Part shown: positions 6,861-54,577 of the stretch, in pieces
How the letters are laid out: every line of letters begins with the position of its first letter
How positions within the stretch are numbered: the first letter of the stretch is position 1
Assembly (NCBI GenBank): GCA_029862185.1
Contig: JAOTXX010000008.1
Location: 8,909-72,908 of the forward strand
DNA: 64,000 nt
From: Myxococcales bacterium
GTDB lineage: Bacteria; Myxococcota_A; Polyangia; Polyangiales; Houyiibacteriaceae
Direction of reading: 5' to 3'
Notes under the pieces: generated by a model
Told to the model about the DNA's origin: nothing
The model's database searches: none
Seen by the model: the letters and a program-made list of their open reading frames with translations, nothing else
Program-made: the position numbers and the translations under genes

Positions 6861-8006
6861 ATGACGGGAAGAATTACATGCTGGCGGTCGGCCCTTGCGA
6901 TCTTTGCCTTGGCTTCGTTGATCGCGTCTTGCAGTGATGATGGGGGCAGTACCAGCAGCACAGGCCCATCGGTGGATGCTCCGGATGCGCTTGGGGCTTA
7001 CGCGGTGGGTCATACGATGTTCACGCTGGTCGACGACGCGCGTGATGGTCGCGAGCTGATCGTCAACGTCTGGTACCCCGTAGACGCGACCGATGCGCAA
7101 GACGGGCCTCGGACCGAATACCCGTTGCAATCGGTCTTCACGCTTCCCTCCGAAGTCGCGGTCGACGACCTTCCTGTGTCGTCAGAGGGACCGTTGGCGT
7201 TCTTGGTCTTCTCGCATGGGTTTGGCGGGATCAACACACAGTCCACTCAACTGATGGAAGCGTTGGCCAGTCACGGCTTCATCGTTGCTTCACCGGAACA
7301 CACCGGGAACACCGCGCTCGATGGCAGCGACGAAAGCCCGGCCGAGAAGCGTGTGCCTGATGTCTCGGCGGTCATCGACGAGATGTTCGCGCGCGCCAAC
7401 ACCGCTGGAGATGCCTTCGAAGGCCGCGTCGATGAATCCAAGGTCGGCGTCCTCGGGCACTCGTTTGGCGGGAGCACCGCCATGGGCATGGTCGCCGGCT
7501 GGGCGGGCGCCGATCCGGACCCGCGCGTCAAGGCCATTGCGGTCATCGCCGGGGGCGTCGGAGCCGGCAACTTCAGCGAAGAAGCGCTCGCCGCGGTCAC
7601 CGAGCCCACCCTACTCTTTGTCGGCACCTTGGACCCGAACGCGCTCGAGAACCACAACTACGCGTTCGACCGGATGCCGAACGCCGAGCCGCTCTTCAAG
7701 GTCGAGGTGACCGGCGCCAATCACACTCACTTCGCAAACGTCTGTGCGATTGGAAACCTGCTGATCGACCAGCTCATGATTCCCCAGGACAGCTGGCCCA
7801 CCTTCGGGGCAGAGGCGCTGATTCAGCCGTACAACGACACCTGCACGGACGAGGTCTTCCCGATCACCGAAGCGCACAGGCTCCAGAACCTCTACATGGT
7901 GGCTCACTTCAAGCGCCACCTCCTCGAGCAAACCGGCTACGACCGGTTTCTATCAGCGAGCTACGCGACCGCCAACGAGCCCGCGATTACCTTCGTGACA
8001 AAGTAG
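6861..8006 (+). CDS. Lipoprotein alpha/beta hydrolase (PAF-acetylhydrolase/dienelactone hydrolase-like)
   Basis: Lipobox LIASC, VFSHGFGG, GHSFGG nucleophile elbow, GANHTHF; start moved to ATG at 6861. Confidence 0.8.
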   Translation: MTGRITCWRSALAIFALASLIASCSDDGGSTSSTGPSVDAPDALGAYAVGHTMFTLVDDARDGRELIVNVWYPVDATDAQDGPRTEYPLQSVFTLPSEVAVDDLPVSSEGPLAFLVFSHGFGGINTQSTQLMEALASHGFIVASPEHTGNTALDGSDESPAEKRVPDVSAVIDEMFARANTAGDAFEGRVDESKVGVLGHSFGGSTAMGMVAGWAGADPDPRVKAIAVIAGGVGAGNFSEEALAAVTEPTLLFVGTLDPNALENHNYAFDRMPNAEPLFKVEVTGANHTHFANVCAIGNLLIDQLMIPQDSWPTFGAEALIQPYNDTCTDEVFPITEAHRLQNLYMVAHFKRHLLEQTGYDRFLSASYATANEPAITFVTK

Positions 8007-8611: not shown

Positions 8612-9562
8612 TTACATGAAGGTGTAGACCAGGCTGAACAGGGTCGTGGTGTCGACTTTGACGAGATCGGCGCCTGGCGGAATGCGATCGTAGAGCATCA
8701 GGAATCGCGCTTCGAAGGCCAGCTTGTCGTTCAGCTTCGAGAGCAGTGCGGCGGTCAGATAAATGCGGATGTCTTGGAACGGCGTCGCGTTTTGAACCTC
8801 GACCTTGTTGAGGTTGTAGATCGTCACGATGCTTGCGAGGAACTCCACGTGCTCGTTGAGCCTGTTCTCGTAGTCGAGCGCCGCGAGGAGACCCTGGATG
8901 TTCGAGTTGGAGGTGAGCGACGAAGGCGGCACCTCGTAATTCTCGAACGTGTAGCTGTAACCGATGCGCCCCGCGAAGTAGTGCTTCTCGGTTTTGACGA
9001 ACGCGCGGAGGTAACCGGCATTGGCCAGCAGCTGCGCCTTGAAGCCGGCGAGTGGGTCCCATCGATAGGAAAGCCCGGCCCAGACGGCGTCCATGTCCGT
9101 GAGGAAGTAGTCGTAGCGGGAGACGAAAAAGAACTGCCTCGCGACGGTGGTGTAGGAGGTAGCGGGGTCGGTCGGTGCAACGTCGGCCCGGCCAAAGTTG
9201 AAGAGCGCGCCCAAGGTCAGCCGATGGTCGAGCTTCACGAGGATGACATCCGAGCCGGCATTGACATTCCACGAACGGGTGTTGCCGGTGTTGATCGCGC
9301 CACCCGCGTTGAGGGTCCAATCGACTTCGAGCTCCGGCTCTGCCTCCGCAGCCTCTTCGGCAGCTTCTGCTTGGTCTTCCGGAGCTGCCATGAAAGTCGC
9401 TTCGCCAGCGGCTTCGGTCGTCCCCGCGCTCACGTCGGCCGCGACGCTATCGGGAATCGCCTCCTCCTGCGCCGATGCACCATTGCCCCAGGTCGAAAAG
9501 GCCACCGTCGCGAGCACGAGGCCCAATCTGGCTAGCTTCGACGATACACACATTCTCCTCAT
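8612..9562 (-). CDS. DUF481 family outer-membrane beta-barrel protein with acidic N-terminal extension
   Basis: Signal peptide, alternating beta-strand pattern (GGAINTGNTRS, RYDYFL, GRIGYSY), aromatic C-terminus LVYTFM; GGGAGG RBS. Confidence 0.7.
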   Translation of the reverse strand: MRRMCVSSKLARLGLVLATVAFSTWGNGASAQEEAIPDSVAADVSAGTTEAAGEATFMAAPEDQAEAAEEAAEAEPELEVDWTLNAGGAINTGNTRSWNVNAGSDVILVKLDHRLTLGALFNFGRADVAPTDPATSYTTVARQFFFVSRYDYFLTDMDAVWAGLSYRWDPLAGFKAQLLANAGYLRAFVKTEKHYFAGRIGYSYTFENYEVPPSSLTSNSNIQGLLAALDYENRLNEHVEFLASIVTIYNLNKVEVQNATPFQDIRIYLTAALLSKLNDKLAFEARFLMLYDRIPPGADLVKVDTTTLFSLVYTFM

Positions 9563-11388: not shown

Positions 11389-11596
11389 GTACCGGGGCGC
11401 GGAAAAAACCCGTCACGGGGTTCCATCGAACGGCTCGGCTTGCAGATGTGGTCGGAAGCACTTGGGGGCCTGGACCACGCAAGCCGAGCCTCGGAACTCG
11501 CGCCAATCGGGGGTGGTTGCTGTCTTGCCGATTGTCACTCGTTACGTCGACTCCACCCCATGACGGGTTTTTTCCGCGCCCCTCTATATGGAGACA
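11389..11596 (+). repeat. Structured intergenic repeat, copy 1 (candidate ncRNA or REP/MITE-like element)
   Basis: 22-bp terminal stem 11394-11415/11561-11582, 12-bp inner stem 11432-11443/11479-11490, 44-nt core 11497-11540 identical to the reverse complement of 21658-21701. Confidence 0.85.
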
Positions 11597-11655
11597 GGAC
11601 CACCAACCTTCCCCAAACGGTAGGCGCCAGCGTCAATGTCAGCGCCGCGCCAGCG

Positions 11656-12318
11656 CTACCCCGCCACGAACGTCCGCGCGCCCTCTGCGAGTGCGTCGAT
11701 GAGGCTCGATGGCTCCGTCCGAACCATCGGTGAAAGCTCAATCTGCACGCCGCTCAGCCGTGGCACATTGACCGGGTTGTCGGGATGCACGCCTCGAATC
11801 GGCTTTGGGATCACCGAGAGGTCGTCGACGACGACCGCATTGGGGAGTGCGGGGCGCAGCGCTTCGGCAAGGTGTGCCGCGAGCGCGCGATTGCGTCCAC
11901 CAAGCATCACATGGTGGAGAAACGCCTTCCGGCGAAAGCCATGTACGGTCACCACGATGTCGACGACCTCGAAGAACGCTTGCAGCTTGGGGGACTCATC
12001 GGCTCGAAAAAGCGAAGACGGGATGTGCCAACGGAGATTCGGCGGCTGCCGTATCGCATAGAACGACGCGTCGGCTTTGTACGCCGCCTTTTCGGCAATC
12101 GCATCGGTCTTCGTCTCCAGGCTTCCGCCATGAAACGCCATGAAGCCAAACCGAGAGCGCAGGGCAAGGTCCTCTTCGACGCCACGGCAGGCCAGCAGCT
12201 CTGCGAGGTAGCGCCGCTTCCGGTTTTCGAATGGGCCCTTGGGCGCGGGACGGGTCACCGCTGGGGTGTAGCACTCGTTTGGGCGGGCTCCCGCGAACCT
12301 GAGCCTGGCCTCGTTCAA
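11656..12318 (-). CDS. Poly-gamma-glutamate hydrolase family protein (PghP/DUF867-like)
   Basis: AFHGGSLE, HIPS, TVHG and GVHPDNPVN..GVQIELS motifs; true start may be downstream of 12318. Confidence 0.8.
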   Translation of the reverse strand: MNEARLRFAGARPNECYTPAVTRPAPKGPFENRKRRYLAELLACRGVEEDLALRSRFGFMAFHGGSLETKTDAIAEKAAYKADASFYAIRQPPNLRWHIPSSLFRADESPKLQAFFEVVDIVVTVHGFRRKAFLHHVMLGGRNRALAAHLAEALRPALPNAVVVDDLSVIPKPIRGVHPDNPVNVPRLSGVQIELSPMVRTEPSSLIDALAEGARTFVAG

Positions 12319-12358
12319 GCCCGAGCCGTCGGTTGCGTTTCAAACGCGCCCGTAGCGC

Positions 12359-12961
12359 TCAAAACACCAGTCGCGATCGCGCCAGGTCCCATTGAGCTCG
12401 GCGTGGTGCCTTGGTTCGCGCTTCCTGCAGTCCGCGGAGCTTTTGCTTGCGAGCGCCTAGCTTCGAGCCTGAGACGGCAGCGCCGATGAGCCCTCCGATC
12501 GCAGCGACGGTGCCGAGCGTAAAGAGGACGAAAGTGCCGCCAGGAGGGAAAAGGTCCCAGCTCGGATCTAGAGACTCCTCTCGTTGCCACTTGCGGAGCA
12601 CGACGACTCCGCCGCCTATTAGCGCCCCGCCGACTCCAATGAAGAGGGAGGAAACGATGACCCCCTTCCTGTATTGCTGTACACGAGGGTCCGTCTTGTG
12701 CCGCGGCGCTGGAGGCGGCGACACGCTCATACCGGAGGAGTCGAGGCGCAGCTCGTACGTGTCTGGGTCCCAGTTCCTCCGCGTCCGCTTGCGCAAACGC
12801 GGACTCAGACCGCCTTCCTCTTGAGCTGGCTCAGACGAAGGCCCGGGCGCCTCTGGACCTGGCTCCGGCATCGTACCTTCGGCGCCGTCTTGTGCGCCCG
12901 CCCCCAGAGGCAAAGCCAACAACGCCGCGAGCAAGCACAGAAAACGAATCGAGTACCGTAT
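12359..12961 (-). CDS. Exported/membrane hypothetical protein; probable start codon ATA (mutated or non-canonical)
   Basis: The in-frame extension of ORF 12359-12934 reads AGAGG-ttcgtc-ATA CGG TAC TCG ATT CGT TTT CTG TGC, matching the gagg..gtcATG-R-Y leader of 14220. Signal peptide ends AGA-Q; two TM segments. Confidence 0.6.
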   Translation of the reverse strand: MRYSIRFLCLLAALLALPLGAGAQDGAEGTMPEPGPEAPGPSSEPAQEEGGLSPRLRKRTRRNWDPDTYELRLDSSGMSVSPPPAPRHKTDPRVQQYRKGVIVSSLFIGVGGALIGGGVVVLRKWQREESLDPSWDLFPPGGTFVLFTLGTVAAIGGLIGAAVSGSKLGARKQKLRGLQEARTKAPRRAQWDLARSRLVF

Positions 12962-13009
12962 GACGAACCTCTTTACGTATGACCATGGGTCCCCCAGCTG
13001 CCGAGCGAT

Positions 13010-13021
13010 ATACGTAATTCT
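13010..13021 (-). promoter_or_regulatory. Conserved 12-bp motif AGAATTACGTAT, copy 1
   Basis: Exact match to 14043-14054 (+) and 17382-17393 (-); lies on the coding strand upstream of the 12961 gene. Confidence 0.6.
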
Positions 13022-13111
13022 TTAGCGGGGAGCTGGGTTGCCAGCCATCCCCGCGCCGCGGTGCTCACGGCTTACTCGCCCAATGCGTATCGTGCTAAAC
13101 ACCGCCCACAC

Positions 13112-13188
13112 GCGCCTGTAGCTCAGCTGGATAGAGCGGTGGCCTTCTAAGCCGATGGTCGGGGGTTCGAATCCCTCCAGGCGCGCCG
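13112..13188 (+). tRNA. tRNA-Arg(UCU)
   Basis: GCGCCTG/CAGGCGC acceptor stem, D-arm GCTCAGCTGGATAGAGC, anticodon loop CT-TCT-AA, T-arm GGGGG-TTCGAAT-CCCTC; ends CCG rather than CCA. Confidence 0.95.
13149..13187 (+). repeat. attL-like 39-bp direct repeat (3' half of tRNA-Arg)
   Basis: AAGCCGATGGTCGGGGGTTCGAATCCCTCCAGGCGCGCC, identical to 18921-18959. Confidence 0.93.
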
Positions 13189-13286
13189 TAAAACACGGGA
13201 TGAAATGGTCCTCTGCACTTTGCTTGCATCGCTGCTGGACCCCCTGCTGGACCTTTTTCCCGCGCCCGCGCCAAAGCTTCGCGCCG

Positions 13287-13793
13287 TCAACGCAGATGCT
13301 TTGGAATGGGCCAAGGATCATTCCAGTCCACTTCGTGCCCCCTGGTCACGTTGTCGGGTCGCGGGTGATGGAGTGCTCGCAGGATCGCGTTTGGGACTGA
13401 CTCCGGATTCCTCCATCGTTTGCCCTTGGGCTTGCCGTCATCGACTAGCAGCGATGCGATCGCTTGACCGACCTCGATCGGATCGCAATCGGCCTTTGTG
13501 CAATCGGCTCGCAGTGGTGGCGGAAGGTGGCGGATGACATAGGCGGCCACGTACAGCGGATCGGCCCCGCTGTCCTCGATCGCGATGCGCGTAACGTTGA
13601 TCATGAAGGGGCCTTCCCACATGCGGCCACCCCTTAGTCTCTGGTATACAGGCGCGGCGTCCTTCACGTCAGCCCACCGCACCACGCGGACGCCCGCGAT
13701 CGCGACAATGGGGGCCGGTTCTACCCTATGCGGTTCGGGCGCGTGCTCCGCTTCGGCGCTAGGCTCGTGTTTAGTCGGCGGGTTTTCTTCCAT
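13287..13793 (-). CDS. Hypothetical protein (island)
   Basis: Globular-looking C-terminal region; start placed at MEENPP because the longer ORF start overlaps the 32-bp repeat. Confidence 0.5.
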   Translation of the reverse strand: MEENPPTKHEPSAEAEHAPEPHRVEPAPIVAIAGVRVVRWADVKDAAPVYQRLRGGRMWEGPFMINVTRIAIEDSGADPLYVAAYVIRHLPPPLRADCTKADCDPIEVGQAIASLLVDDGKPKGKRWRNPESVPNAILRALHHPRPDNVTRGHEVDWNDPWPIPKHLR

Positions 13794-13963
13794 GACCGCT
13801 GGCTCATGCCCGGAGCGCTGGTATCGCTGTCGGGCTTTTCTAATGGCGCAGTCTAACTGGAAAAACGGACTGCGCAGGCTCCGGTCACGGGACGTGTATG
13901 AACCGACGGGACCCGCGCTTCCCTTGCGTTGCGTCCTGGCGACCGCAACACCCCGGCGGTCGA

Positions 13964-13995
13964 CGCACCCGCTGCGCCCCCACGCCCCAAACGCA
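13964..13995 (+). repeat. 32-bp cassette repeat, copy 1
   Basis: CGCACCCGCTGCGCCCCCACGCCCCAAACGCA; near-identical to 17425-17456 (-) and 18439-18470 (-). Confidence 0.8.
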
Positions 13996-14042
13996 ACGCC
14001 CTGCAACCGGGCTTCGTGTCAATGCGCAAAACCCGCAACTAG

Positions 14043-14054
14043 AGAATTACGTAT
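14043..14054 (+). promoter_or_regulatory. Conserved 12-bp motif AGAATTACGTAT, copy 2
   Basis: Exact match; followed by GCCGCA as in copy 3 (AGCCGCA); upstream of the lipoprotein at 14220. Confidence 0.6.
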
Positions 14055-14219
14055 GCCGCAATTTCTGCGCGAGTTAGCTGCGAAACGCAGACTGTGCACT
14101 CACTTTTTCGTCGACTTCAAGTGATTACCAACAGTTTACGGCTGGCACGTCCTGTGCTTCCCGATATGTCCAAGCGTCCGTGTTTCCCGTTGCCGCGAGG
14201 CGTCGAAGGGAGGCGCGTC

Positions 14220-15428
14220 ATGAGGTACTTATTCGGATTTCTATGCGTCTGCGCGCTCGGCCTGGTTCCACTTGTTGGCTGCGGTAACGACGCGACGGGC
14301 GATGGTGGCACGGCTGGTATGGGCGGCGCAGGCGGAACCGGCGGCAACGTGACTGAAGCGATCGAGCAGATGTTGGTCGGCCGCTGGTGGCTCGATTGGG
14401 ACGGCGCGATGGCCATGCTTGACGATGGAGTTGGGCTCCCCGCCTTCACGGCTGACGGGTGGGCCAACTACGATGTGAAATTTCCGGTAGGGCTTCCGGG
14501 CCTCACCGACTGGTGCAGGCGGTACGCGAACTGGTCTCTGTTTGACGTGGTCAGTGAGACCGAGTTTGGCTATGCGCTGACCTACACTCACGACACCTGT
14601 AGCCGGGAGACAGGTTGGACGGAACAATTCAAGGTGGTCTTGGATCAGACGAATCCTCCGAATGGCGAGGTGACCCGTCTGTCATCTACGGACCCGGGAG
14701 TAGGGGACGAATTCACGATGCCCATCGAACGATGCACCACCGATATCAACGCAACCGAGGCGTGTACGTTCGACACCGGGCTCGGCGCACCCACACAGAA
14801 TCCCCCGACCGTCGAGCTCACCCTGACGTTGGTCGTGGGGGCTTCCGGAATTGATCGTCCGCCTCTCGAAGGCGCGGCGTTTTGCGAGACTGACACCGAG
14901 AACTGCGAGATGACGGACGCAAACGGACAGGCAACGATCGAAATCGACGTACCCGCAGACGGACAGATCAGTTACACGTACACCAAAGACGGGTACGCGT
15001 CGGCTTTGCGCACTGAAGTGGTCGACGACACCTTCGTCGGGGGGCGCACGAACTGGACATTGACGGACGCGGAGATGCAGCGCCAAGCCGACCTCGTGAT
15101 GACACCCTACCCGTATGAGGGAACCGGGGCCCTCGTAGTTTCTGTGTTCCCTCGTAGTGGTGCAACGTTCGAGCTCGTCGGGGCATCGGGCAAAGGGTTC
15201 TACTACGACGCCCAAGGCGATCCATCGCTCGATCTCGACAGTACAACCACTAACGGAGTAGGCGGCTTCGTTGAGGTCGCCCCGGATGAGGTCGAAGTTC
15301 GGCTCGGAGGAACGGCGACGAACTGCGTCGCGGAATTCGGATGGCCTGGCAGCGAAGCGAACACGATCAGAATGCCGGTCAAAGTCGGCTTCGTCTCATG
15401 GAGCGGCGTGGTCTGCGATGCGCTCTGA
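14220..15428 (+). CDS. Lipoprotein with Gly/Thr linker; C-terminal half carboxypeptidase-regulatory-like (SD-repeat/Ig-type) fold
   Basis: GGGAGG RBS, MRYLFGFLCVCALGLVPLVG-C lipobox, GGTAGMGGAGGTGG linker, CETDTENCEMTDANGQATI ... YTKDGY. Confidence 0.75.
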   Translation: MRYLFGFLCVCALGLVPLVGCGNDATGDGGTAGMGGAGGTGGNVTEAIEQMLVGRWWLDWDGAMAMLDDGVGLPAFTADGWANYDVKFPVGLPGLTDWCRRYANWSLFDVVSETEFGYALTYTHDTCSRETGWTEQFKVVLDQTNPPNGEVTRLSSTDPGVGDEFTMPIERCTTDINATEACTFDTGLGAPTQNPPTVELTLTLVVGASGIDRPPLEGAAFCETDTENCEMTDANGQATIEIDVPADGQISYTYTKDGYASALRTEVVDDTFVGGRTNWTLTDAEMQRQADLVMTPYPYEGTGALVVSVFPRSGATFELVGASGKGFYYDAQGDPSLDLDSTTTNGVGGFVEVAPDEVEVRLGGTATNCVAEFGWPGSEANTIRMPVKVGFVSWSGVVCDAL

Positions 15429-15478
15429 CCGTCGAAGTTAGCCAACGCGACTAGCAAACAGGACCGGCGGCCTTCAGA

Positions 15479-16183
15479 TCACTCTGCGTGTCGCGCTTGC
15501 TCGTTCGGCGTAACCCGCTCGCCGTGCCAGACAAGCACCTTCACTTCGCCGCGTTCACTTAGCGGCACCGTGACGTAGGGCAACTCGAGCTCGGCCACGT
15601 TCGGCTGTTCAATGCCGAAGCACAAGCATAGCTCCGCTTCCTTCGGAAACTGGTCGGCCACTTCGTCCATCGCCGCTTCCGCGCTGTCGGCCAGCACCAC
15701 CTTGCCGTCATGCCGCGCAGCCACCCACCGCTGTTCTTGCGGCCTCGCGCCCGCGCAGTGCTTTTGCAGAAACGCGAGCCGCTTCGGCTTCGAGTCGTAC
15801 AAGGTTTCAGCCAAGTTGCTTGGCTTGCTGACTTGCCCGCACGCCGCGCACTTGACGCTAGTCGGGGTGCTGCCCTTGGGGCGGTAACTGCCGAGCACTA
15901 GAAAGCACGAAGGCGTCACCGCTTCGCCACGCTCGGCCACTTGCGCGGCTTCGCAGGCCGGGCACGCGAGGCCCACCGCGTAGTTCACGCCGCCCACGCT
16001 GCGAAAGGTGTAGCCGCTCGCTTGGAGAATATGTCTCGCGCCCGAGTGCGGGTTTTCGTCGCAACCTTGCGCCCACCTATGCAGCAGCTTTTCGAGCGAA
16101 GGCTGGAACCGCGCACAACCGGGGCGCACGGTTTCAAATGGTGCTTTCGCTTTTTCAGTCATGCTCGCTGTCTCCGAAAACAT
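15479..16183 (-). CDS. Hypothetical protein with two CxxC pairs (possible zinc ribbon)
   Basis: CPAC and CAAC motifs; overlaps the upstream small ORF. Confidence 0.5.
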   Translation of the reverse strand: MFSETASMTEKAKAPFETVRPGCARFQPSLEKLLHRWAQGCDENPHSGARHILQASGYTFRSVGGVNYAVGLACPACEAAQVAERGEAVTPSCFLVLGSYRPKGSTPTSVKCAACGQVSKPSNLAETLYDSKPKRLAFLQKHCAGARPQEQRWVAARHDGKVVLADSAEAAMDEVADQFPKEAELCLCFGIEQPNVAELELPYVTVPLSERGEVKVLVWHGERVTPNEQARHAE

Positions 16184-16364
16184 GTTGGCGCAGCCGGGCG
16201 AAGCGCGGCGGCTTCCGAGACTCGTCCAATTGGTCGGCGGTTATTGGTCGGCGCAAGTACGCCACCAGCTCGCGCCACCGGGCCTGGTAGGCGTCCCGCC
16301 GCTGCTGTTCTTGGGTTTCGGCTATCGGCCAAAGGTCGTTGTCATGTCGCTGTTCAGCTTTCAT
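16155..16364 (-). CDS. Small hypothetical protein
   Basis: MKAEQRHDNDLWPIAE...; charged helical composition; stop overlaps the start region of 15479-16183. Confidence 0.35.
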   Translation of the reverse strand: MKAEQRHDNDLWPIAETQEQQRRDAYQARWRELVAYLRRPITADQLDESRKPPRFARLRQHVFGDSEHD

Positions 16365-16676
16365 GGCTTTGTATTCCTGCCGCCGCCCCCGGGCGGCTGA
16401 GGCGCTAAGGACATCACCAGCCGTCCGGAGGGGTCGCGTTGGAGCAGCCGTTTCTCGAGTCGACTGTCCCCGTGAGAAGCGAGGAGACCGAGCAGCCACA
16501 CACCATTGAGCAACCGATCGGCTGATATGAAAGAACTGGCTCGAGCGCAGCACCGATACGCCTAGATTGGCACCCTAACGCCGTCAAAACGAACGAATAC
16601 GGCTTCTAGTGGCTCCTGAGACGGACAGGCTAGGCAAACGGGGCGGCGGCCTAGGCGGGCGCTGAGGCGGCGCGTA

Positions 16677-16706
16677 CGGCTGCACCTCAAACGCCCCGAT
16701 GTCGCA
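16677..16706 (-). pseudogene. Orphan 3' fragment encoding CDIGAFEVQP (choice-of-anchor-Q-like C-terminus), copy 1
   Basis: TGC GAC ATC GGG GCG TTT GAG GTG CAG CCG, 47 nt after the stop of 16754-17326; near-identical to 17458-17487. Confidence 0.7.
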
Positions 16707-16753
16707 CATCACCCGATGTCGTCAGCTCCTGCATGGTTGAAAGGTCGGGGAGC

Positions 16754-17326
16754 TCAGAAGGAATCGCAGTAGCCCCGAGGACGCGTAAACTCAAAGCAGA
16801 GCTCAGCAAACGGCCCATAACAGCAGTGGCCGTCTCGGCATTCCCCGAAGTCCGTGCACCTGTACTGACATCCGCCGGTGATGCTGCAGTTATATCTTTC
16901 TAGCCTGTAGCAGCAGCTCGAGCCGTTCGGTTCGAGTGTGTGAGCGCAAGTGCCTTCATCGTAAATGTCGTTCGTGCACGAATTACTGACGGGATAAACA
17001 GGGCCGGTCCGCGTACAGATATAGTCGGTACACATGTATTGGCTGGTGGGGGGCTCGCGTCTCTCGCAAGTCCTCGATACGCAAATGCCGTCCTCATAGA
17101 ACTGCTCGACGCCATCGAGGTCGCAGAAGACCGGTAGCTCGTTGTAGAGCACGGAACCGACCTCAGGGTTCCGACAGTATCCACCTGAGCAGACATCGTC
17201 GGTGCATTCGTTGTCGTCGTCGCACTCCTTATTAGTCTGGCATGGGATTCCTTCATCACCACACCCCACGACGCGAAACGTCCCGACTGTGAGCAACACC
17301 AGCATCAAACTAAGCAGCCACCGCAT
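16754..17326 (-). CDS. Cys-rich lipoprotein (CDDDNECTDDVC-type myxobacterial motif)
   Basis: GGGAGG-ttgtc-ATG, MRWLLSL...VVG-C lipobox, numerous Cys; visibly more AT-rich codon usage than the flanks. Confidence 0.75.
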   Translation of the reverse strand: MRWLLSLMLVLLTVGTFRVVGCGDEGIPCQTNKECDDDNECTDDVCSGGYCRNPEVGSVLYNELPVFCDLDGVEQFYEDGICVSRTCERREPPTSQYMCTDYICTRTGPVYPVSNSCTNDIYDEGTCAHTLEPNGSSCCYRLERYNCSITGGCQYRCTDFGECRDGHCCYGPFAELCFEFTRPRGYCDSF

Positions 17327-17381
17327 GACAACCTCCCGGCCCGGTAATAGGTAACGTGGGGTCGCCATGCAGCCTGCGGCT

Positions 17382-17393
17382 ATACGTAATTCT
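17382..17393 (-). promoter_or_regulatory. Conserved 12-bp motif AGAATTACGTAT, copy 3
   Basis: Exact match, 55 nt upstream of the lipoprotein ATG at 17326. Confidence 0.6.
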
Positions 17394-17424
17394 TTCCCGC
17401 TGAACCGATTGTGCGCGCAGCCTT

Positions 17425-17456
17425 TGCGTTTGGGGCATGGGCGCGCAGCGGGCGCG
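17425..17456 (-). repeat. 32-bp cassette repeat, copy 2
   Basis: Minus strand CGCGCCCGCTGCGCGCCCATGCCCCAAACGCA. Confidence 0.75.
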
Positions 17457-17457
17457 A

Positions 17458-17487
17458 CGGCTGCACCTCAAACGCGCCGACGTCGCA
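17458..17487 (-). pseudogene. Orphan 3' fragment encoding CDVGAFEVQP, copy 2
   Basis: TGC GAC GTC GGC GCG TTT GAG GTG CAG CCG, in frame 6 nt after the TGA of 17494-18324. Confidence 0.7.
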
Positions 17488-17493
17488 CGTCGC

Positions 17494-18324
17494 TCAGAAG
17501 AACTCGATGTCGCAATTCAACAGAAGACAGGGCGTCGCGGTTTCGGTTCCGGGGACGTTGTTCTCGACTTTGATTCTGACGTACGTGTTGCCGTCGCCAG
17601 GTGTGTACCGAACGTAGTCCAGTCGATTCAGAGGGTCTGCCCGCAGCTCAAGCTGGACCACGTGCGGGCCCGGGTCTGCGACGGTTTCGACGCGGAGGTC
17701 GCACTCGACCGTTTCGTTCCCGCCCGTCACCACGAAACAAGAACCGCCCGGGATGCCCGAGCTTTCGTTGAAAATAGTCGCGGTCAGCTCCCTGGTATCC
17801 GGATCGACGCCCACGGTGACGGTCACAATATCGTCGGGGCTGGCGTTCGGGGAGGAGATACTCAGCGGCCCCATGATGGTGGGCTCGCCTTCGATGACCA
17901 TCTCGAAGCAAGAGCCGGAGCCGCCGCCGCTGCCACCCGTTCCTGCGGTGCCGCCGCTGCCAGCCGTGCCACCCGTTCCGCCGGTTCCGCCCGTGCCACC
18001 CGTTCCGCCGCTACCAGCCGTGCCACCCGTTCCAGCGGTGCCGCCGCTACCAGCCGTTCCGCCGGTTCCGCTTGTGCCACCCGTGCCGCCGTTTTCGAGA
18101 GGCTTGGAGCAGACGCCTTCTGCTCCGGCAATAGCGGGTTCGCCGGAATCTAGAAGACAAACGAAGCCCGCCGCTTGGTCGCACTGCTGATCGCTGACGC
18201 ATTTGACCAGGTTGTCGCCGTTGTATTGGCAAGTGCCACTGGGCACGGGACATGTCGCCGGATCGTCACCACAACCCATGACGCCCAGCGCCAGCGCGCA
18301 AACCAAACTCAGCAAGTACTGCAT
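17494..18324 (-). CDS. Lipoprotein with Cys-rich N-domain, Gly/Thr linker and Ig-like C-domain
   Basis: GGGAGG-ttgtg-ATG, MQYLLSLVCALALGVMG-C lipobox. Confidence 0.8.
   Translation of the reverse strand: MQYLLSLVCALALGVMGCGDDPATCPVPSGTCQYNGDNLVKCVSDQQCDQAAGFVCLLDSGEPAIAGAEGVCSKPLENGGTGGTSGTGGTAGSGGTAGTGGTAGSGGTGGTGGTGGTGGTAGSGGTAGTGGSGGGSGSCFEMVIEGEPTIMGPLSISSPNASPDDIVTVTVGVDPDTRELTATIFNESSGIPGGSCFVVTGGNETVECDLRVETVADPGPHVVQLELRADPLNRLDYVRYTPGDGNTYVRIKVENNVPGTETATPCLLLNCDIEFF
17914..18090 (-). repeat. Coding low-complexity tandem repeat (GGT/GGTAGS/GGTAGT)n
   Basis: 9- and 18-nt units such as GCCACCCGT / TCCGCCGGT encoding a Gly/Thr/Ser linker. Confidence 0.85.
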
Positions 18325-18438
18325 CACAACCTCCCCCGGCGCAGCACGCCAGTGAGTCAGGCACGACTGGGTGCATCAGCCATGCCAAGCGGAGGCGCCG
18401 AGATTGCAGCGAAATCCGCGACGGCGAGGCGCAGCTTC

Positions 18439-18470
18439 TGCGTTTGGGGGCGTGGGGCGCAGCGGGTGCG
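18439..18470 (-). repeat. 32-bp cassette repeat, copy 3
   Basis: Minus strand CGCACCCGCTGCGCCCCACGCCCCCAAACGCA, upstream of lipoprotein 18324. Confidence 0.8.
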
Positions 18471-18551
18471 CTGAGGGCGCGCTGAGAGCCCTTTACGGAT
18501 CGCCCGGAGCGGTGCGACGTTGCCCGCAACCCAAACCAAGGAGCGCTCGAG

Positions 18552-18821
18552 ATGAAGAAGATGGTTGCAGTTGGTCTTATCGGCCTCGGACTCGCAGTAG
18601 GTCTGGTCATTCCAGGAGTCTTTGCCCAATCCCCGCAGGGCGAGGTTCAGAAGTGGGAGCAGTTTTGCGAAGTGCCTCCGGCAAGAGGCGGGTATGAGAA
18701 AGCCACCAAGATGATGAGTGAGAGTGTGGCGGCTCACGGAAAGTCCGGATACCAACTCGTCGGTGCCGCACCATGGGACGGCAATATTTGGCTCCTCTGC
18801 TACCGCCGACCGGCGCGTTAG
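18552..18821 (+). CDS. Small secreted protein (DUF4177-like: WEQFC ... GYQLVG ... LCYRRP)
   Basis: Signal peptide ending VFA-Q; AGGAG upstream. Confidence 0.65.
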   Translation: MKKMVAVGLIGLGLAVGLVIPGVFAQSPQGEVQKWEQFCEVPPARGGYEKATKMMSESVAAHGKSGYQLVGAAPWDGNIWLLCYRRPAR

Positions 18822-18920
18822 CGGGCTGAGATCTAGGGTCGCGAATTTGCTGAATCGTAGGGGCACGGCCGCCCCGCCCCGGCCCATATTCCTCTAATGG
18901 GGGGTAGAGGTCGGCTATGA

Positions 18921-18960
18921 AAGCCGATGGTCGGGGGTTCGAATCCCTCCAGGCGCGCCA
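18921..18960 (+). repeat. attR-like tRNA-Arg 3' fragment ending in CCA
   Basis: 39 bp identical to 13149-13187, plus A giving a CCA end. Confidence 0.93.
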
Positions 18961-18975
18961 TGGGTGGTCGCCGGC

Positions 18976-21210
18976 TCAGGAGCGGCGGCTGATCATGAGC
19001 GTGGCGGCTTCGGTTCTTCTCGCGACGCGCAGAGCCAGCTCGCTGAAGAGGCGCTTGCCGCGCTGGTGGCGGAGGCCAAGGATGATGAGGTCGTTGGGGC
19101 CTGCTTCCTGCGCGAGCGCTTCGACGATGTCGGTCGACTCGAGGAGCTTGGCGTCGGGGGCGCCGTAGGTTTCTTCTTTGGCGAACACGCGCAGCTCCCG
19201 TTCGAGCTGAAGCTTGTTGGACCTCGGCAGACTTTGCTTCGTGGCCTGGACGAAGCGCACGCTCTTGAGCCCTGCACGGCCAAGGCTCCCGAGGAGGCGA
19301 GCGCGGAGCGCGTCGTGACCTCCGCGGCCGCCCACGGGGACGATGATCTTCGTGTCGGCGTTGATCGACCAGTCCTTGGGAGCGCGCAAGACGACCACAT
19401 CGCAGTCGACGGCGTTCAACAGCTGCTCGATGTGGGCTACGTTGCTGTGCTCCTCGAGTGAAGAGAAGCCGATGAGGAGGCTCTCGCAGTCGCGAGTCTG
19501 CGCGATTCGCGCGATTTCTTTCCAGGGGTCGGTCGCGATCGTCATGAGGGCCTCGGGTGCGTGCCCTGCTGTGAGCGATGCGGCCATGGCTTGCTCGACG
19601 ACGTGCTGTGCGTCACCCAGTGCTTTGGTCGTCTCCGCCTCGGCCGCTGCGAAGTCCGCGGGGCGGCGAACGACGGTGAGGAGAAGGACCCGGCCTACGA
19701 TTGGAATGGCGAGAGCGTTGGCGAGTGTGACCATGCCAACGGCGCTCGTAGGATTGGCGACCGGCACCAGGACGAGCGGGCTTCGGCCTCGCAGCACACC
19801 GAGATGGGGGTCTCGCGCTTCGGCGAAGGCATCCACCGCCTGGGCGCGACCTTTGAACAAACCGAAGTAGAGAATCACGCCGAGGCCTAGCCAGACGACC
19901 GCGATGGCGCCGGCAGCGGGGACGGCGAACGCTTGGTACAAGGCGAGCAGCGAACAGGCCAGACCCCCGATCACTGGAATCGCAGGAAACCAAGGGGTTC
20001 GAAACGGAGCCTTCACCCGGGACCGCTGGCGCGCCAACAAGTTCGTCCAGTGGACGAGCGCGAACGAAATCAGAAAGATGAGGCTCGCGGCTGCGCCCGC
20101 GGATGAAACCGAAGGCACCATTAAGAGGATGAACGCCATCGCCAGTGCGGTGGCGTAGATCGCCATGACTGGCGTGCCTCGAGTTTGGTGGCGCTCTTGA
20201 AGAACCCGAGGGAGGGTCCGGTCGGTCGCCATTTGCAGGGAAATGCGGCTTGCTGCGAGCACATTGGCCGAAAGCGCCGAGAGGGTGGAGAGCAACGCAG
20301 CGACGACCACCAACCAATACCCGAGCGGGCCGGCGAAGTTGAACGCGGCATCGGCCATGACGGTGGCGGGGCGTTCGCTGCTCATTTGGCCGATGCTTTC
20401 GCCTGGCGAAACGCCCACCGTAGAGATGAGAAAAAGCAGCGGTATGTAGACGGCCAACGCGATTCCCAAAGACATCAGCATGGCACGCGGAATGTTTCGT
20501 TCGGGCTTCTTCACCTCGCCGCCGACGGTGGCGATCAGGTCGAAGCCTTGAAGGGCGATGAAGGTGAAGCCCATTGCGGTGAAGAGCCCGCCTGTCCCGT
20601 GCTCGAAGAAGGGAGTGAGGCCGCCTTCGACCGTGCCTGAAGGGGCGCCGACGAGCGCCCAGACCGCCAAGAGGATCAGCACGCCGAAGACGACCAGCTT
20701 GCCGACCGTTTCCCACTGACCCCCGCCTTCGCTCTTTCGAACCAGCATGAGGCTGTATGCCGCGGTCGCGAGCACCGCGAGGCCGAGCACCGTGGAACGG
20801 CTGCGCAACCATGGGGGTTGCTCGGCTCCGAATGCGTTCCAAATTTCGCCCAGCGCCAGCACGGCGTACTCCGCAAAGCCCAGGGCGTACAAGACGCCCG
20901 CGACAATGTACGCAAACCAGAGCACCCAGCCCACGACAAATGCGGCCCGCACGGTAAGGACCTTCTTTGCAAACGTGTAGGCGCCCCCAGACTCGGGAAA
21001 CATCGACGACATCTCGGCGAAGCTCAGGGCGGTGATGACGGCCACAACGCCATTGAGCGCGAACGCCAAAATGGCGCTCGGCCCGGTGGCCTGAAACGCA
21101 GCCCCGGCGAGGACGAGGATGCCGCCGCCGACGATGGCCCCAACGCCTACGCCGATCGCTTGGATCGGACCAAGACGCCGCGTCTCCCCTCCCTTTGATG
21201 CCGCCGACAC
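18976..21210 (-). CDS. APC-family amino acid permease with C-terminal universal-stress (USP)-like domains
   Basis: GVGAIVGGGI TM1, PESGGAY, QGFDLIATVGGEVKKP; C-terminal VLVPVANP ... VDCDVVVLR ... IIVPVGG. Confidence 0.9.
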   Translation of the reverse strand: MSAASKGGETRRLGPIQAIGVGVGAIVGGGILVLAGAAFQATGPSAILAFALNGVVAVITALSFAEMSSMFPESGGAYTFAKKVLTVRAAFVVGWVLWFAYIVAGVLYALGFAEYAVLALGEIWNAFGAEQPPWLRSRSTVLGLAVLATAAYSLMLVRKSEGGGQWETVGKLVVFGVLILLAVWALVGAPSGTVEGGLTPFFEHGTGGLFTAMGFTFIALQGFDLIATVGGEVKKPERNIPRAMLMSLGIALAVYIPLLFLISTVGVSPGESIGQMSSERPATVMADAAFNFAGPLGYWLVVVAALLSTLSALSANVLAASRISLQMATDRTLPRVLQERHQTRGTPVMAIYATALAMAFILLMVPSVSSAGAAASLIFLISFALVHWTNLLARQRSRVKAPFRTPWFPAIPVIGGLACSLLALYQAFAVPAAGAIAVVWLGLGVILYFGLFKGRAQAVDAFAEARDPHLGVLRGRSPLVLVPVANPTSAVGMVTLANALAIPIVGRVLLLTVVRRPADFAAAEAETTKALGDAQHVVEQAMAASLTAGHAPEALMTIATDPWKEIARIAQTRDCESLLIGFSSLEEHSNVAHIEQLLNAVDCDVVVLRAPKDWSINADTKIIVPVGGRGGHDALRARLLGSLGRAGLKSVRFVQATKQSLPRSNKLQLERELRVFAKEETYGAPDAKLLESTDIVEALAQEAGPNDLIILGLRHQRGKRLFSELALRVARRTEAATLMISRRS

Positions 21211-42659: not shown

Positions 42660-43445
42660 CTACTGCGGTGTCCCGGGCACCGCGGCTTCGAGAAAGTCGA
42701 GGTAGCGCGCCGCGATGGTCCCGACGAGAAGCAAGTCGTTATGGTCCATGCGCGGGACTTCGATGTACTCATCCGCGCGGAACAGCCTGGCGAGCTCCTT
42801 GCCGTGGTGCACATCGATGAGGGTGTCTGCGCGACCGTGGGCGACGAGCACCGGGCACGAGACCTTCCCCGCGAATTCGCGGGTCATGAAACGGTGCCGC
42901 AGCACGCTTCCAGTTGGAAGAAAGGGGTAGTGCTCCTTGGCGAGGGCGACCAACGACGTGAATGTCGACTCCATCACCAGTGCGCCGGGGCCTACCTTCG
43001 CCGCGAGCGGCACGGCCACGCCACCGCCAAGGCTCCGCCCATGAATCGCCACCCGGCTCGGCGCGGCGCCGAGCTCGCCGGTCACCCAGCGCCACGCGGC
43101 CATCGCATCGCGGTGCAAACCTGCCTCGCTCGGGACACCGCTGCTCCCCGGGTAACCGCGGTAGTGAATGCCGACGAAATCCCAGCCCTCGCTCAGCAAG
43201 AGGTTCTGCAGCTCGATCTGTGCGAGCAGCGACGACGCGTTGCCGTGGAAGTAAAGGACGACCCGTCGCGGCCCCGACCAAACCGCAGCCCGGTGCCAGC
43301 CGTAAAGGGTTTCGCCGTCTTCGGTCGCGATGCGGAGCTCTGTCGCGCCGACCTTCCCTGCAACCTCGTTCAGCAGCGAGACGCTGACCCCCTCCGGCCC
43401 CGGGAAAACCATCCGCCGTTGAAACTGTGCGAACACGCTGCGCAT
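42660..43445 (-). CDS. Alpha/beta hydrolase (ABHD13/Bem46-like)
   Basis: LYFHGNA, YRGYPGSSGVPSEAGL, HGRSLGG, HGRAD, HND. Confidence 0.88.
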   Translation of the reverse strand: MRSVFAQFQRRMVFPGPEGVSVSLLNEVAGKVGATELRIATEDGETLYGWHRAAVWSGPRRVVLYFHGNASSLLAQIELQNLLLSEGWDFVGIHYRGYPGSSGVPSEAGLHRDAMAAWRWVTGELGAAPSRVAIHGRSLGGGVAVPLAAKVGPGALVMESTFTSLVALAKEHYPFLPTGSVLRHRFMTREFAGKVSCPVLVAHGRADTLIDVHHGKELARLFRADEYIEVPRMDHNDLLLVGTIAARYLDFLEAAVPGTPQ

Positions 43446-52598: not shown

Positions 52599-54577
52599 GG
52601 CTTGCTCCAAGTTTGCTCCAAAGGGATTAATTGGTCGGTCGGGTCCCCACCCGGTAGATACAAGCGCCGTGCCAACACGAATCGAAGCCGGCTCGGGTCG
52701 TCGGCGCGGGGAGCCACGGCGATTCCAGTAATGGTGCAATCCTCACCAAAGCAGCCGCTGCGCACCAAGCTCGACGTGCTGCTGATGATGGGGTTCACGA
52801 GGAAAGGAACCGGCTCAGGAAGCTCGAACGCGAGCGCTGAGGTGTCGTGGGTTCGCGCTTCGGCCAGGGCCACGCCCCACTCGCCCGGCGCGCGTTGCGC
52901 CAGGAACCAAATCCGCAAACGCATCCCGTCCTTCTCAAACGAAATCAGCGGCTCGGGCGAACGAATCCCAGCCGCAGCAAACGGTCCGAGCTCGCTTGCC
53001 ACCAACACCACACGCCGCATCGGCCCACCGCCTTCGCGCACCACTTCGAGCGCGCGCGAAATCCGAACCGCGTGAATCTCCATCGCGGCGCCCGCCCCGT
53101 CGACGCAGGTGAACAGCAGCCAGTACCCTTCCTGTGCCTCCGGATCCACCGGAATTAACGCGGGATCCCGCAGGCTCACGCAATTTGGAATCTGGGCGGG
53201 CGAGAGCGTTGCGGTCCCCGGCAGCGTGAGCGAAGTCGCCGGGCTTCCCACTGGCCGCACGAGTTGAATCCCAAACACGTCGCGCTCGCTCGGGTCGCTC
53301 ACCAGCTCGCGCGCAAACGACAAGACCAGGTCCCGAAGCTCTCCATCCTCGTTGAGCTCGGCGAGCAGATGCGGCTCGCGCACGCTTCGGTTGTCCGAGC
53401 AGCTCCCATCCAAACAGGACGGCGGGTCGTCTCCCGCTTTGGGCGATTCGTTGATGGTCCAGCCGCTGAGCGGCCAGTCGCTCCCTTCATCGGTCGCCAC
53501 TCGCGCATGCCCCAGGGCGTAGCCAATGTGCGTCGTCGGCTCGAGCTCGGGCGGGTCGTTGCTCGCTTCCAGCATCAGGTCCCACTGGACGTCCGAAATC
53601 GAGTTTCGTGAGCTGGCCAACGCCGGCGAACCCACGTACGCCGACACCCATGAGGGGTTAAGTTCGAGGCTCGACCCGGTCAAGATTGCACTTTGTTCAT
53701 CGAACTGGCTCGGATTGGCACAGTCCTGCTTCGCGGTTTGTAGCGGCCCCACATACACGCCGTCCCCCCGGCCCTGCGCCGCCACCCGAAGGCCCGGAAT
53801 CTCTGTGCAGTCCCCGTCGCTGAGCAGGTCCGAAACCGCCACCACGGTGAAGTCCTCGAGAATTGGCGCGCTGTCGACCGTCACCTGCGCCTTCAGGATG
53901 GGCAGGTTGTCGTCGTTGAGCTTGGGCCGAAGCTCGATTTCAACCCCGATGGTTTCGTCGATGCCCACCGTCGTGCGCGCCACTTCGACATCCGCTTGGG
54001 TCACCAGCACGAGGCCTCCAGCGTGAAGCGTCACCGCAAGCTCGTCCTGAAGCTTGCCGCCCACCGCCGCGTCATCGGCCACCGTGAGCACCAGGCCGGC
54101 GTAGCGTTCACACACCGCGTCGGGTGTGCAGCCCGTGGCGTCGGTCGTTCGTAGCGTCGTGCTCACCCAACCACCGAGCCCGAGCGACACGCAGTCCTTG
54201 CTCAAGAGCGCGCGCGGTGAGTCGTCGGGCAGAAAGCCACCGACAAACGTCGCGCCATCAATAGAAGGCCGAACCGGCCCCCACGCGCCGCCGCCAGTTG
54301 GCGTGAACACCCAATCGTTACTCAGGTTGGCAGCGGTCCAATCCTCGCTGAGCGTCGTGCGGCGGAGCTCGCAGCAGGCCGGCTCTTGTGCGCAGTCCGT
54401 GTCATCGCAGTCGAAGGCCAGGTCGTTGTCGTCATCGAGCATGTCATCGCAGAACAGCTCGATGCCGTCGCCGCCGGTGCCTGGGGGCGTCAGATTGCGC
54501 TCCGGCGCGTTCAGCCAAGAGCAGCCGCCGCCGAACAACACGAGCGGAAGGACCATGGCGGCGAACCTGCGACTCAT
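52595..54577 (-). CDS. Large lipoprotein: acidic Cys motif, lectin-like sandwich and beta-propeller-like C-terminus (paralogue 1)
   Basis: FGGG-C lipobox, CDDMLDDDNDLAFDCDDTDC, CxxxxxCERYAG, REPHL, RDPAL, RSPEP. Confidence 0.65.
   Translation of the reverse strand: MSRRFAAMVLPLVLFGGGCSWLNAPERNLTPPGTGGDGIELFCDDMLDDDNDLAFDCDDTDCAQEPACCELRRTTLSEDWTAANLSNDWVFTPTGGGAWGPVRPSIDGATFVGGFLPDDSPRALLSKDCVSLGLGGWVSTTLRTTDATGCTPDAVCERYAGLVLTVADDAAVGGKLQDELAVTLHAGGLVLVTQADVEVARTTVGIDETIGVEIELRPKLNDDNLPILKAQVTVDSAPILEDFTVVAVSDLLSDGDCTEIPGLRVAAQGRGDGVYVGPLQTAKQDCANPSQFDEQSAILTGSSLELNPSWVSAYVGSPALASSRNSISDVQWDLMLEASNDPPELEPTTHIGYALGHARVATDEGSDWPLSGWTINESPKAGDDPPSCLDGSCSDNRSVREPHLLAELNEDGELRDLVLSFARELVSDPSERDVFGIQLVRPVGSPATSLTLPGTATLSPAQIPNCVSLRDPALIPVDPEAQEGYWLLFTCVDGAGAAMEIHAVRISRALEVVREGGGPMRRVVLVASELGPFAAAGIRSPEPLISFEKDGMRLRIWFLAQRAPGEWGVALAEARTHDTSALAFELPEPVPFLVNPIISSTSSLVRSGCFGEDCTITGIAVAPRADDPSRLRFVLARRLYLPGGDPTDQLIPLEQTWSKP

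Follow-up and report, generated by a model that had tools for sequence, protein, structure and literature searches.

We analysed a 64,000-nt stretch of DNA (the window; positions 8,909 to 72,908 of contig JAOTXX010000008.1, assembly GCA_029862185.1) from a Myxococcales bacterium, in which four genes for exported proteins (12961-, 14220+, 17326- and 18324-) are found at a tRNA-Arg(tct) gene. Coordinates without a contig number are those of the window. The source genome (G000, 4.29 Mb) carries the array on its contig C22; the remaining G-numbers denote congeners and L-numbers loci. The initial annotation had described a cassette array in which a reusable module is followed by unrelated protein bodies. 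We found that unrelated bodies do stand behind a common module, but that the three lipoprotein genes appear to be the cargo of an integrase-less islet at the tRNA gene, which that annotation had missed.

The features of the locus are listed in Table 1. A 32-nt repeat (R32) is present on the coding strand upstream of 14220+, 17326- and 18324-. Its three copies are 81-88% identical in pairwise comparison and none is expected in dinucleotide-preserving shuffles of the window. A 12-mer, AGAATTACGTAT, occurs in three exact copies, 18324- having none, and was not seen once in 100 shuffles of the same kind. All leaders in the window carry GGGAGG-N5-6 before the start codon. The repeats and leaders first reported for the four genes are thus real. 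A further element of 35 nt, D2, is a relic of coding sequence that is treated below together with the joins.

Lipobox cysteines were located at residue 21 of 14220+ (MRYLFGF..VGC), residue 22 of 17326- and residue 18 of 18324-, and no similarity among the four mature regions was detected by BLASTP, in agreement with the earlier description of three lipoproteins with unrelated mature parts. In the AlphaFold model of 14220+ the N-terminal part was poor, while residues ~200-400 formed beta-sandwich domains with pLDDT >90. Foldseek gave transthyretin-like folds as the best single-domain matches and pilin or adhesin stalks as matches to the whole model. The codon at the aligned start of 12961- is ATA, and no standard in-frame start was found upstream of it on reading the sequence; five congener homologues have ATG at this position, and the four in body cluster 2 all begin with ATG-MRY. 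Homologues of 17326- at 32-34% identity, themselves preceded by the module, were found in arrays of G005, G009 and G023. Those of the 18324- C-domain were found in only ~5 of 55 congeners, the G016 copy being at a different locus, and those of the 234-aa gene were confined to metagenome-assembled genomes (MAGs) of related Myxococcales. None of the seven open reading frames (ORFs) of the islet gave a significant match in Pfam, PHROGs or NCBIfam, and the weak matches were not recombinase-like. An Rfam scan of 11500-19500 returned only the tRNA and a tRNA-like remnant.

Table 1. Features at and around the tRNA-Arg(tct) gene, in window coordinates.
Feature	Coordinates	Strand	Remarks
Degenerate D2 relic	12329..12363	-	immediately 3' of the 12961- stop; 63% identity to the D2 family; TTC-TGA-GCG..GCGTTTGA junction recurs in homologues
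Exported-protein gene 12961-, '...SRLVF' body family	12359..12961	-	MRY-type leader, signal-peptidase-I type site (..GAGAQD), without lipobox
12-mer AGAATTACGTAT of 12961-	13010..13021	-	exact match
tRNA-Arg(tct), integration target	13112..13187	+	last 39 nt (13149-13187) are the left attachment site (attL)
Islet backbone gene, 168 aa, tRNA-proximal	13287..13793	-	no known family; 81% aa / 87% nt to the tRNA-proximal gene of the G023 tRNA-Val element (L051)
Array-leader segment ahead of the first R32	13856..13963	+	together with R32, 83% over 146 nt to C17:16170-16025
R32 copy 1, upstream element of 14220+	13964..13995	+	repeat search
12-mer of 14220+	14043..14054	+	exact; 165-nt untranslated region (UTR) atypical, without family UTR box
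Lipoprotein gene 14220+, body A	14220..15428	+	leader MRYLFGFLCVCALGLVPLVGC, Gly linker
Decayed family 3' terminator element (GGCGGCCTTCAGATCACTC...)	15466..15507	+	by reading, against intact congener copies
Islet backbone gene, 234 aa, CxxC motifs	15479..16183	-	no known family; 66% aa to a 263-aa gene of L051
Small backbone gene, 69 aa, partner of the 234-aa gene	16155..16364	-	pair also in L051 and L052
D2 relic, reads CDIGAFEVQP	16676..16710	-	stranded 43 nt past the 17326- stop
Lipoprotein gene 17326-, Cys-rich body, 190 aa	16754..17326	-	leader MRWLLSL..VGC, Cys22
UTR box GGCGACCCCACGTTACC (17350-17366) and 12-mer (17382-17393) of 17326-	17350..17393	-	alignment; exact 12-mer
R32 copy 2	17424..17456	-	repeat search
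D2 relic, reads CDVGAFEVQP	17457..17491	-	abuts R32; 2 nt past the 18324- TGA, in frame
Lipoprotein gene 18324-	17494..18324	-	leader MQYLLSL..MGC (Cys18), small Cys-rich N-domain, (GGT/S)n linker, C-domain
9-nt periodic repeat encoding the (GGT/GGS)n linker of 18324-	17895-18097		repeat search
R32 copy 3	18439..18470	-	no 12-mer after it
Small secreted-protein ORF, 89 aa	18552..18821	+	without module; no family matches
tRNA-like remnant and right attachment site (attR)	18869..18959	+	39-bp repeat 18921-18959; tRNA model 26.6 bits; 79% to an internal att remnant of L051

One 5' block and many bodies

When all genomic copies were aligned, R32, the 12-mer and the GGGAGG-ATG-MRY leaders were found to be parts of a single homologous 5' block of ~200-270 nt. 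The block runs from R32 through TGCGC..AATCGG, the 12-mer, a UTR box (GGCGACCCCACGTTRCC) and the ribosome-binding site (RBS) with its spacer (GGGAGGTTGTC) to the ATG and the signal peptide. Its coding part specifies a signal peptide with a lipobox, MRY(L/F)FGF.CVCALG..GC(S/G)(E/D), and then a Gly-rich tether. In the source genome it stands in front of at least nine unrelated bodies: DUF3089 lipase-like proteins, beta-lactamase-fold esterases, a penicillin-amidase-type acylase, a CBM11+TPR protein, a choice-of-anchor-Q beta-helix, Cys-rich proteins and the three window bodies. Clustering of 50 non-identical block-linked proteins from 12 genomes gave 25 body clusters. The module was present in 19 of 24 congeners and in essentially none of the genomes from 16 other genera of the order.

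We then searched 5.8 billion proteins with 14220+ as query. Besides true homologues, the search returned leader-only matches over ~20 residues, 79-95% identical and mostly 90-95%, and the proteins concerned carry differing Pfam domains (SMP-30-like, DUF3089, Beta_helix, BNR and CarboxypepD_reg). With the first 31 residues as query, an exhaustive HMMER search of 1.84 billion cluster representatives matched 117, each standing for a different cluster at 50% identity, and in nearly all of them the match lay at or near residue 1. The longer ones contain Beta_helix, Dicty_CTDC, GDSL lipase, secretory lipase, metallo-beta-lactamase, Kazal, Big_5 or NHL domains, or no known domain. Because it is joined to more than 100 unrelated secreted proteins, the front end probably acts as a reusable export module spread by recombination. 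These counts bear out the reusable promoter-RBS-signal module of the initial annotation, with its promoter role kept as putative.

An alternative origin would be an ordinary family of paralogous lipoproteins, formed by duplication and extreme divergence of the mature part under selection on the 5' region, without recombination. Within body families some observations would fit such a course: DUF3089 paralogues are 53-60% identical overall and ~90% identical over the last codons and D2, the ends outlasting the middles, and 14220+ is 96% identical to C17:12011 in the leader and 82% overall. However, the bodies belong to independent and widespread families (DUF3089, beta-lactamase fold, penicillin amidase, CBM11+TPR, beta-helix, GDSL lipase, Kazal, SMP-30-like), and as their folds differ they cannot derive from each other. 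The joins described below are also sharp, one body occurring with different leaders. We regard descent of this kind as extremely unlikely.

R32 and D2 each occur seven times in the source genome, every copy in a locus of exported-protein genes (contigs C17, C22, C25, C107 and C153). Repetitive extragenic palindromic (REP) sequences and REPINs are found as tens to hundreds of short palindromic intergenic copies unlinked to gene type, a distribution that neither R32 nor D2 has. With only seven copies, all at exported-protein gene loci, R32 is therefore not the generic dispersed REP that the initial annotation had put forward as an alternative to its own proposal. Exact 12-mers number 12 in the same genome against ~0.1 expected by our own estimate from base composition.

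The block itself might still be a small promoter-bearing mobile element comparable to Correia elements, enterobacterial repetitive intergenic consensus sequences (ERICs) or miniature inverted-repeat transposable elements (MITEs). It is multi-copy and occurs in one genus only, and it agrees with the definition of a putative mobile promoter, which asks for 80% identity or more across 50 nt or more in the regions ahead of non-homologous genes (Matus-Garcia, Nijveen and van Passel 2012, PMC3575422). C153:7174-7243 is 82.9% identical over 70 nt to the module at C17:13314 (genes C153:7086 and C17:12011), and C17:10641-10730 reaches 90% over 90 nt. The bodies behind these copies are unrelated. Against such an element, neither terminal inverted repeats nor target-site duplications were found at the block edges, no transposase is associated, and the copies are 70-85% identical rather than near-identical. 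Homology also runs on into the leader or linker and ends variously at +35, +57 to +70 and +148 to +174. We consider a mobile element improbable. Unlike mobile promoters, the reused unit further takes in the 5' UTR, the RBS and 20-55 codons of coding sequence, and with this coding leader the block would transfer export and lipidation besides regulation.

The 12-mer looks like the promoter or operator box of a regulon, and the UTR box may share this function. The 12-mer is more widely distributed than R32, as it precedes two paralogous genes, one at C6:23483-24658, whose product is a GerE/LuxR-type regulator by Pfam, and one on C161 (~74400-74600). With the 12-mer before their own starts, these paralogues are candidate autoregulated regulators of the block-linked genes. 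When the 12-mer and UTR box were compared by eye with known promoter types, a sigma-54 promoter was rejected on the GG..GC spacing (12 nt, not 10) and an extracytoplasmic-function (ECF) promoter on GAAT..CGTA, which are too close. Tandem 12-mers were seen at two places on C45. At 7343-7520 (locus L047) they are 21 nt apart and are followed by ~130 nt ending in a strong stem-loop and a T-run, a putative small RNA gene; at 53493-53525 a second pair lies ahead of a signal-peptide gene. Neither locus had an Rfam match.

Joins and a stranded 3' relic

The leader of the penicillin-amidase gene in G009 was found to be 88% identical in nucleotides to that of a beta-helix gene in G005 from -11 to +70, with no similarity beyond. 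The amidase body of the source genome aligns to the G009 copy from +57 onward only, and the leader differs. As the shared body starts at +57 behind different leaders, this join is at the lipobox, where the initial annotation had proposed to look for breakpoints. Other joins fall within the hydrophobic core of the signal peptide, at +35, or within the Gly-rich linker, at +148 to +174; those at +35 give the signal-peptidase-I type family, 12961- included. One amidase body with different leaders in two genomes, together with the differing content of sites given below, also speaks against leader-body pairs that are inherited purely by vertical descent.

In addition, 14220+ and the gene at C28:18077-19711 have a common 45-nt leader patch with unrelated DNA on either side. 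The linker is encoded by GGN repeats with a 9-nt period. Such repeats are shared by a great many genes throughout the genus, linker-only matches being obtained in 52 of 55 genomes, and they could offer microhomology for joins. The joins themselves would be the product of homologous and illegitimate recombination.

D2 encodes CD(V/I)GAFEVQP and a stop, the last 11 codons of choice-of-anchor-Q genes (NF041518); the C-terminal pattern of that family, ..QRG.PRP....CD(V/I)GA(F/Y)E, matches it as the source. Among 42 sampled copies, 10 were in a long open frame, six of them plain choice-of-anchor-Q tails, and 32 were stranded, following either unrelated genes or a conserved terminator. In-frame endings in ..FEVQP were seen in a few unrelated bodies, and the stop context TTC-TGA-GC recurs in 17326-, 18324- and the 12961- family. 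The NF041518 model scored 70 bits with the gene at C153:44251-45534 and 62 bits with a 502-aa gene of G012; the window genes are not members. These observations suggest that an older gene frame has had its body exchanged while both of its ends persisted. Conservation of the relic may be due to gene conversion, recent events or another function. In 18324- the TGA is followed by in-frame ATCDVGAFEVQP, a D2 relic, and the gene's own ending, ..NCDIEFF, resembles the motif, which could reflect a recent nonsense or frame change, or chance.

In tandem arrays D2 directly adjoins R32 or is separated from it by a few nt. The two repeats show partial complementarity (GCGTTTGAGG / CCCCAAACGC), and the minimum-free-energy fold pairs them with one another. 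The number of units varies between the arrays of different genomes, and as in integron arrays the units are short, hold single genes, sit at fixed chromosomal sites and have repeats between them. The D2/R32 junction could then be an attC-like hairpin for a dedicated recombinase that moves units running from R32 to D2. However, the hairpin was no more stable than shuffles (z = -0.3, -2.2, +0.6) and also failed as a terminator, and RYYYAAC/GTTRRRY cores were not found on reading the sequence. The best TIGR02249 match scored 88.8 bits against a cut-off of 265, the matches being Xer-like and on other contigs, and no recombinase adjoins the C22 or C17 arrays. Array ends are half-sites, R32 alone or D2 alone, the D2-R32 spacing varies from 0 to ~50 nt, and D2 is a coding relic. 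In contrast to integrons, there is no IntI, attC, attI or common Pc here, and nearly every unit has its own promoter-like block (12-mer and UTR box). The integron-like shuffling machine with which the locus was first compared is thus very unlikely.

The stranded copies also call to mind polymorphic toxin loci (Rhs, CdiA, myxobacterial SitA), which have a conserved 5' part, variable 3' parts and displaced orphan C-terminal modules. The host is a myxobacterium and a conserved lipoprotein-leader N-terminus precedes a variable rest, so that a kin-recognition or toxin locus of the SitA or Rhs kind, a parallel drawn at the outset, could be envisaged. Nevertheless, scans with Pfam, NCBIfam and PHROGs gave no toxin or immunity domains, and the cargo resembles hydrolases and adhesin-like beta-sandwiches. 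The conserved part comprises only the signal peptide and linker, with no escort or delivery domain, and no small downstream gene is consistently paired with the cassettes. The stranded pieces are ~11 codons of a conserved tail, unlike toxin/immunity pairs. We hold a toxin locus to be highly improbable.

The islet at tRNA-Arg(UCU) and other sites

Perfect direct repeats (39/39 nt) of the tRNA 3' end, one copy at 13149-13187 and the other, 5,772 nt further on, at 18921-18959, delimit the 5,772-bp segment 13188-18959. In seven congeners (G020, G022, G023, G011, G009, G042 and G007) the site is empty, the tRNA being 11-101 nt, and in four <20 nt, from the permease gene that borders the segment in the source genome. 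G022 and G023 have permeases with 94% identity to the one in the source genome, and the attR flank of the source genome aligns with the flank of the empty site in G022. Other inserts were found at the same site: G012 and G043 each hold one different block-type cassette, and G016 has a 3.5-kb insert that is unrelated to that of G043 though the flanks are 89-90% identical. In G004 (C619, locus L029), whose permease shares 96% identity with the one in the source genome, the apparent end of an IS481/IS3-type transposase gene comes after the tRNA-Arg(tct), and the contig then breaks.

The three non-lipoprotein backbone ORFs are 75-87% identical in nucleotides to those of a G023 element that adjoins tRNA-Val and carries an integrase and an HTH_17 excisionase-like gene. 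No tyrosine-recombinase gene was found in the window, and all ten PF00589 matches in the source genome are on contigs other than C22 and C17. The islet showed no clear G+C anomaly, its GC3 (0.61-0.75) being mildly below that of flanking genes (0.75-0.82). With attL and attR intact, no integration or transfer genes inside and a backbone related to an integrase-bearing element, 13188-18959 matches the definition of a cis-mobilizable element (CIME), in which att sites are kept and integration genes lost (PMC6323972). We take it to be an integrase-less integrative islet of the CIME type, with the three lipoprotein genes as its likely cargo, and its mobility would depend on integrases acting in trans. 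As with CIMEs, tandem att-bounded islets are found in the same genome, at tRNA-Gly (accretion); unlike CIMEs, the elements are very small (2-7 kb) and no conjugative partner (integrative and conjugative element, ICE) was identified.

This tRNA-Gly site, on C25, shows the same islet system intact. A tRNA-Gly and an integrase gene are followed there by a block-type penicillin-amidase cassette and then by five further att repeats that bound small islets. The region (C25:37514-61706) has tRNA-Gly(gcc) and a tyrosine integrase of 407 aa, and the tRNA 3' end is repeated at 42677, 44717, 48631, 54281 and 61662; one islet holds polyketide/fatty-acid-synthase-like genes and the others hold lipoproteins. 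On C17, five block-type genes lie between ~52-nt direct repeats at the 3' end of tRNA-Arg(acg), and five congeners lack these genes while five more have unrelated content in their place. At two sites next to tRNAs the cassettes were wholly different between genomes with flanks 74-95% identical. One cassette on C153 adjoins tRNA-Asp. Two dispersed repeats of ~70 nt and ~184 nt, each with many copies per genome throughout the genus, were seen on C17 (C17:8881-9131), in the interval that separates the left att repeat from the last gene of the array.

A two-layer interpretation and its parallels

We think it probable that the locus has two layers, an islet without integrase at tRNA-Arg(UCU) and a genus-wide set of exported-protein genes, defined not by the mature domain but by a common 5' block that was recombined onto varied bodies. 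The three lipoprotein genes and the neighbouring 12961- are members of this set. Direct observation covers the homology and the joins as well as the empty sites and the variable content. The islet would have entered the tRNA 3' end by site-specific recombination and later lost its integrase, keeping attL and attR, and islets would now be moved by integrases acting in trans. The block would supply signals for transcription and regulation, strong translation initiation, export, lipidation and a flexible tether, and recombination would have placed it before lipases, esterases, an acylase and beta-helix, Cys-rich and Ig-like bodies. Bodies may have been exchanged within an older choice-of-anchor-Q frame, leaving D2 at the 3' end. 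The cargo may serve scavenging, predation or adhesion. What stands out is the scale, the clean junctions and the link to integrase-less tRNA islets.

Several points weigh against this interpretation. A tblastn search of the source genome gave no homologue of the G023 integrase, so the islet may now be immobile. The large arrays of congeners are not adjacent to tRNAs, and islets are therefore not the sole carriers. For the joins, neither a recombination enzyme nor a hot-spot sequence was identified, and likeness of leaders could partly reflect selection for export or surface sorting and not recent exchange. RNAalifold on 24 copies found no covarying structure in the 5' UTR (four near-invariant pairs, CCCC with the RBS), and a riboswitch-like reading of the UTR was dropped for want of useful covariation. 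Nearly all of the data come from MAGs, in which repeats could have produced chimeric contigs. Against chimerism, the copies have many synonymous differences and the same pattern is seen in assemblies of 20 contigs or fewer (G005, G009, G012, G020 and G023).

A bolder version of the two-layer interpretation is a recombination-based "plug-in" system for the surface and secreted proteins of the genus, in which the front end and D2 as the back end serve as homology arms for one-step swapping in of any new body, and cassettes travel between species on trans-mobilised islets. We offer it tentatively and think it rather unlikely. If true, it would be a functional analogue of integrons that needs no dedicated integrase. 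The two-layer interpretation by itself already shows how a newly gained gene could acquire regulation, strong translation, export, lipid anchor and tether in a single join, a natural counterpart of engineered surface-display vectors. It also identifies the tRNA-adjacent islets as the variable compartment of the secretome in a myxobacterial genus with small genomes. For annotation, N-terminal similarity among block-linked proteins is no sign that they function alike, and MAG assemblies are likely to break at the repeats.

Functionally, the nearest parallel is offered by the Erp/OspE-F/Elp lipoproteins of Borrelia burgdorferi, where an upstream homology box and leader peptides are common to unrelated mature lipoproteins on cp32 prophages (PMC12018966, which cites Marconi 1996 and Akins 1999). 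In both cases lipoprotein genes on mobile elements have a common upstream region and leader before unrelated mature parts; no sequence relation to the Borrelia genes was found. The present genes differ in belonging to a free-living uncultured genus of Myxococcota and in being carried by tRNA islets and chromosomal arrays instead of plasmid prophages. Their body types are also far more numerous (25 sampled, 117 database clusters), and the frame includes a Gly-rich tether as well as a 3' relic. In the Vsp, Vlp and Vsa systems of Mycoplasma, a conserved 5' UTR and prolipoprotein signal precede repeat-based mature variants, and switching between these relies on slippage or on the site-specific inversion of a single promoter. 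The present bodies, in contrast, are folded domains without relation to one another, and each has a putative promoter copy of its own. Sharing of leaders and promoters, best known from these host-associated bacteria, would thereby extend to free-living uncultured myxobacteria and to a much larger scale.

Finally, a 62-aa ORF (MNTKKHTIYVINTADNGKSYWNRAGVAFENKDGSFTFKLDILP...) without Pfam match recurs 2-4 times in each of the large congener arrays (L014:16587-16772, also L015, L016, L020, L021 and L022; G005, G020, G023 and G009). It sits in a repeat of ~0.5-1 kb, a few hundred nt upstream of 12-mer boxes. The arrays of the source genome do not contain it, and a 36%-identical relative is encoded on C53.

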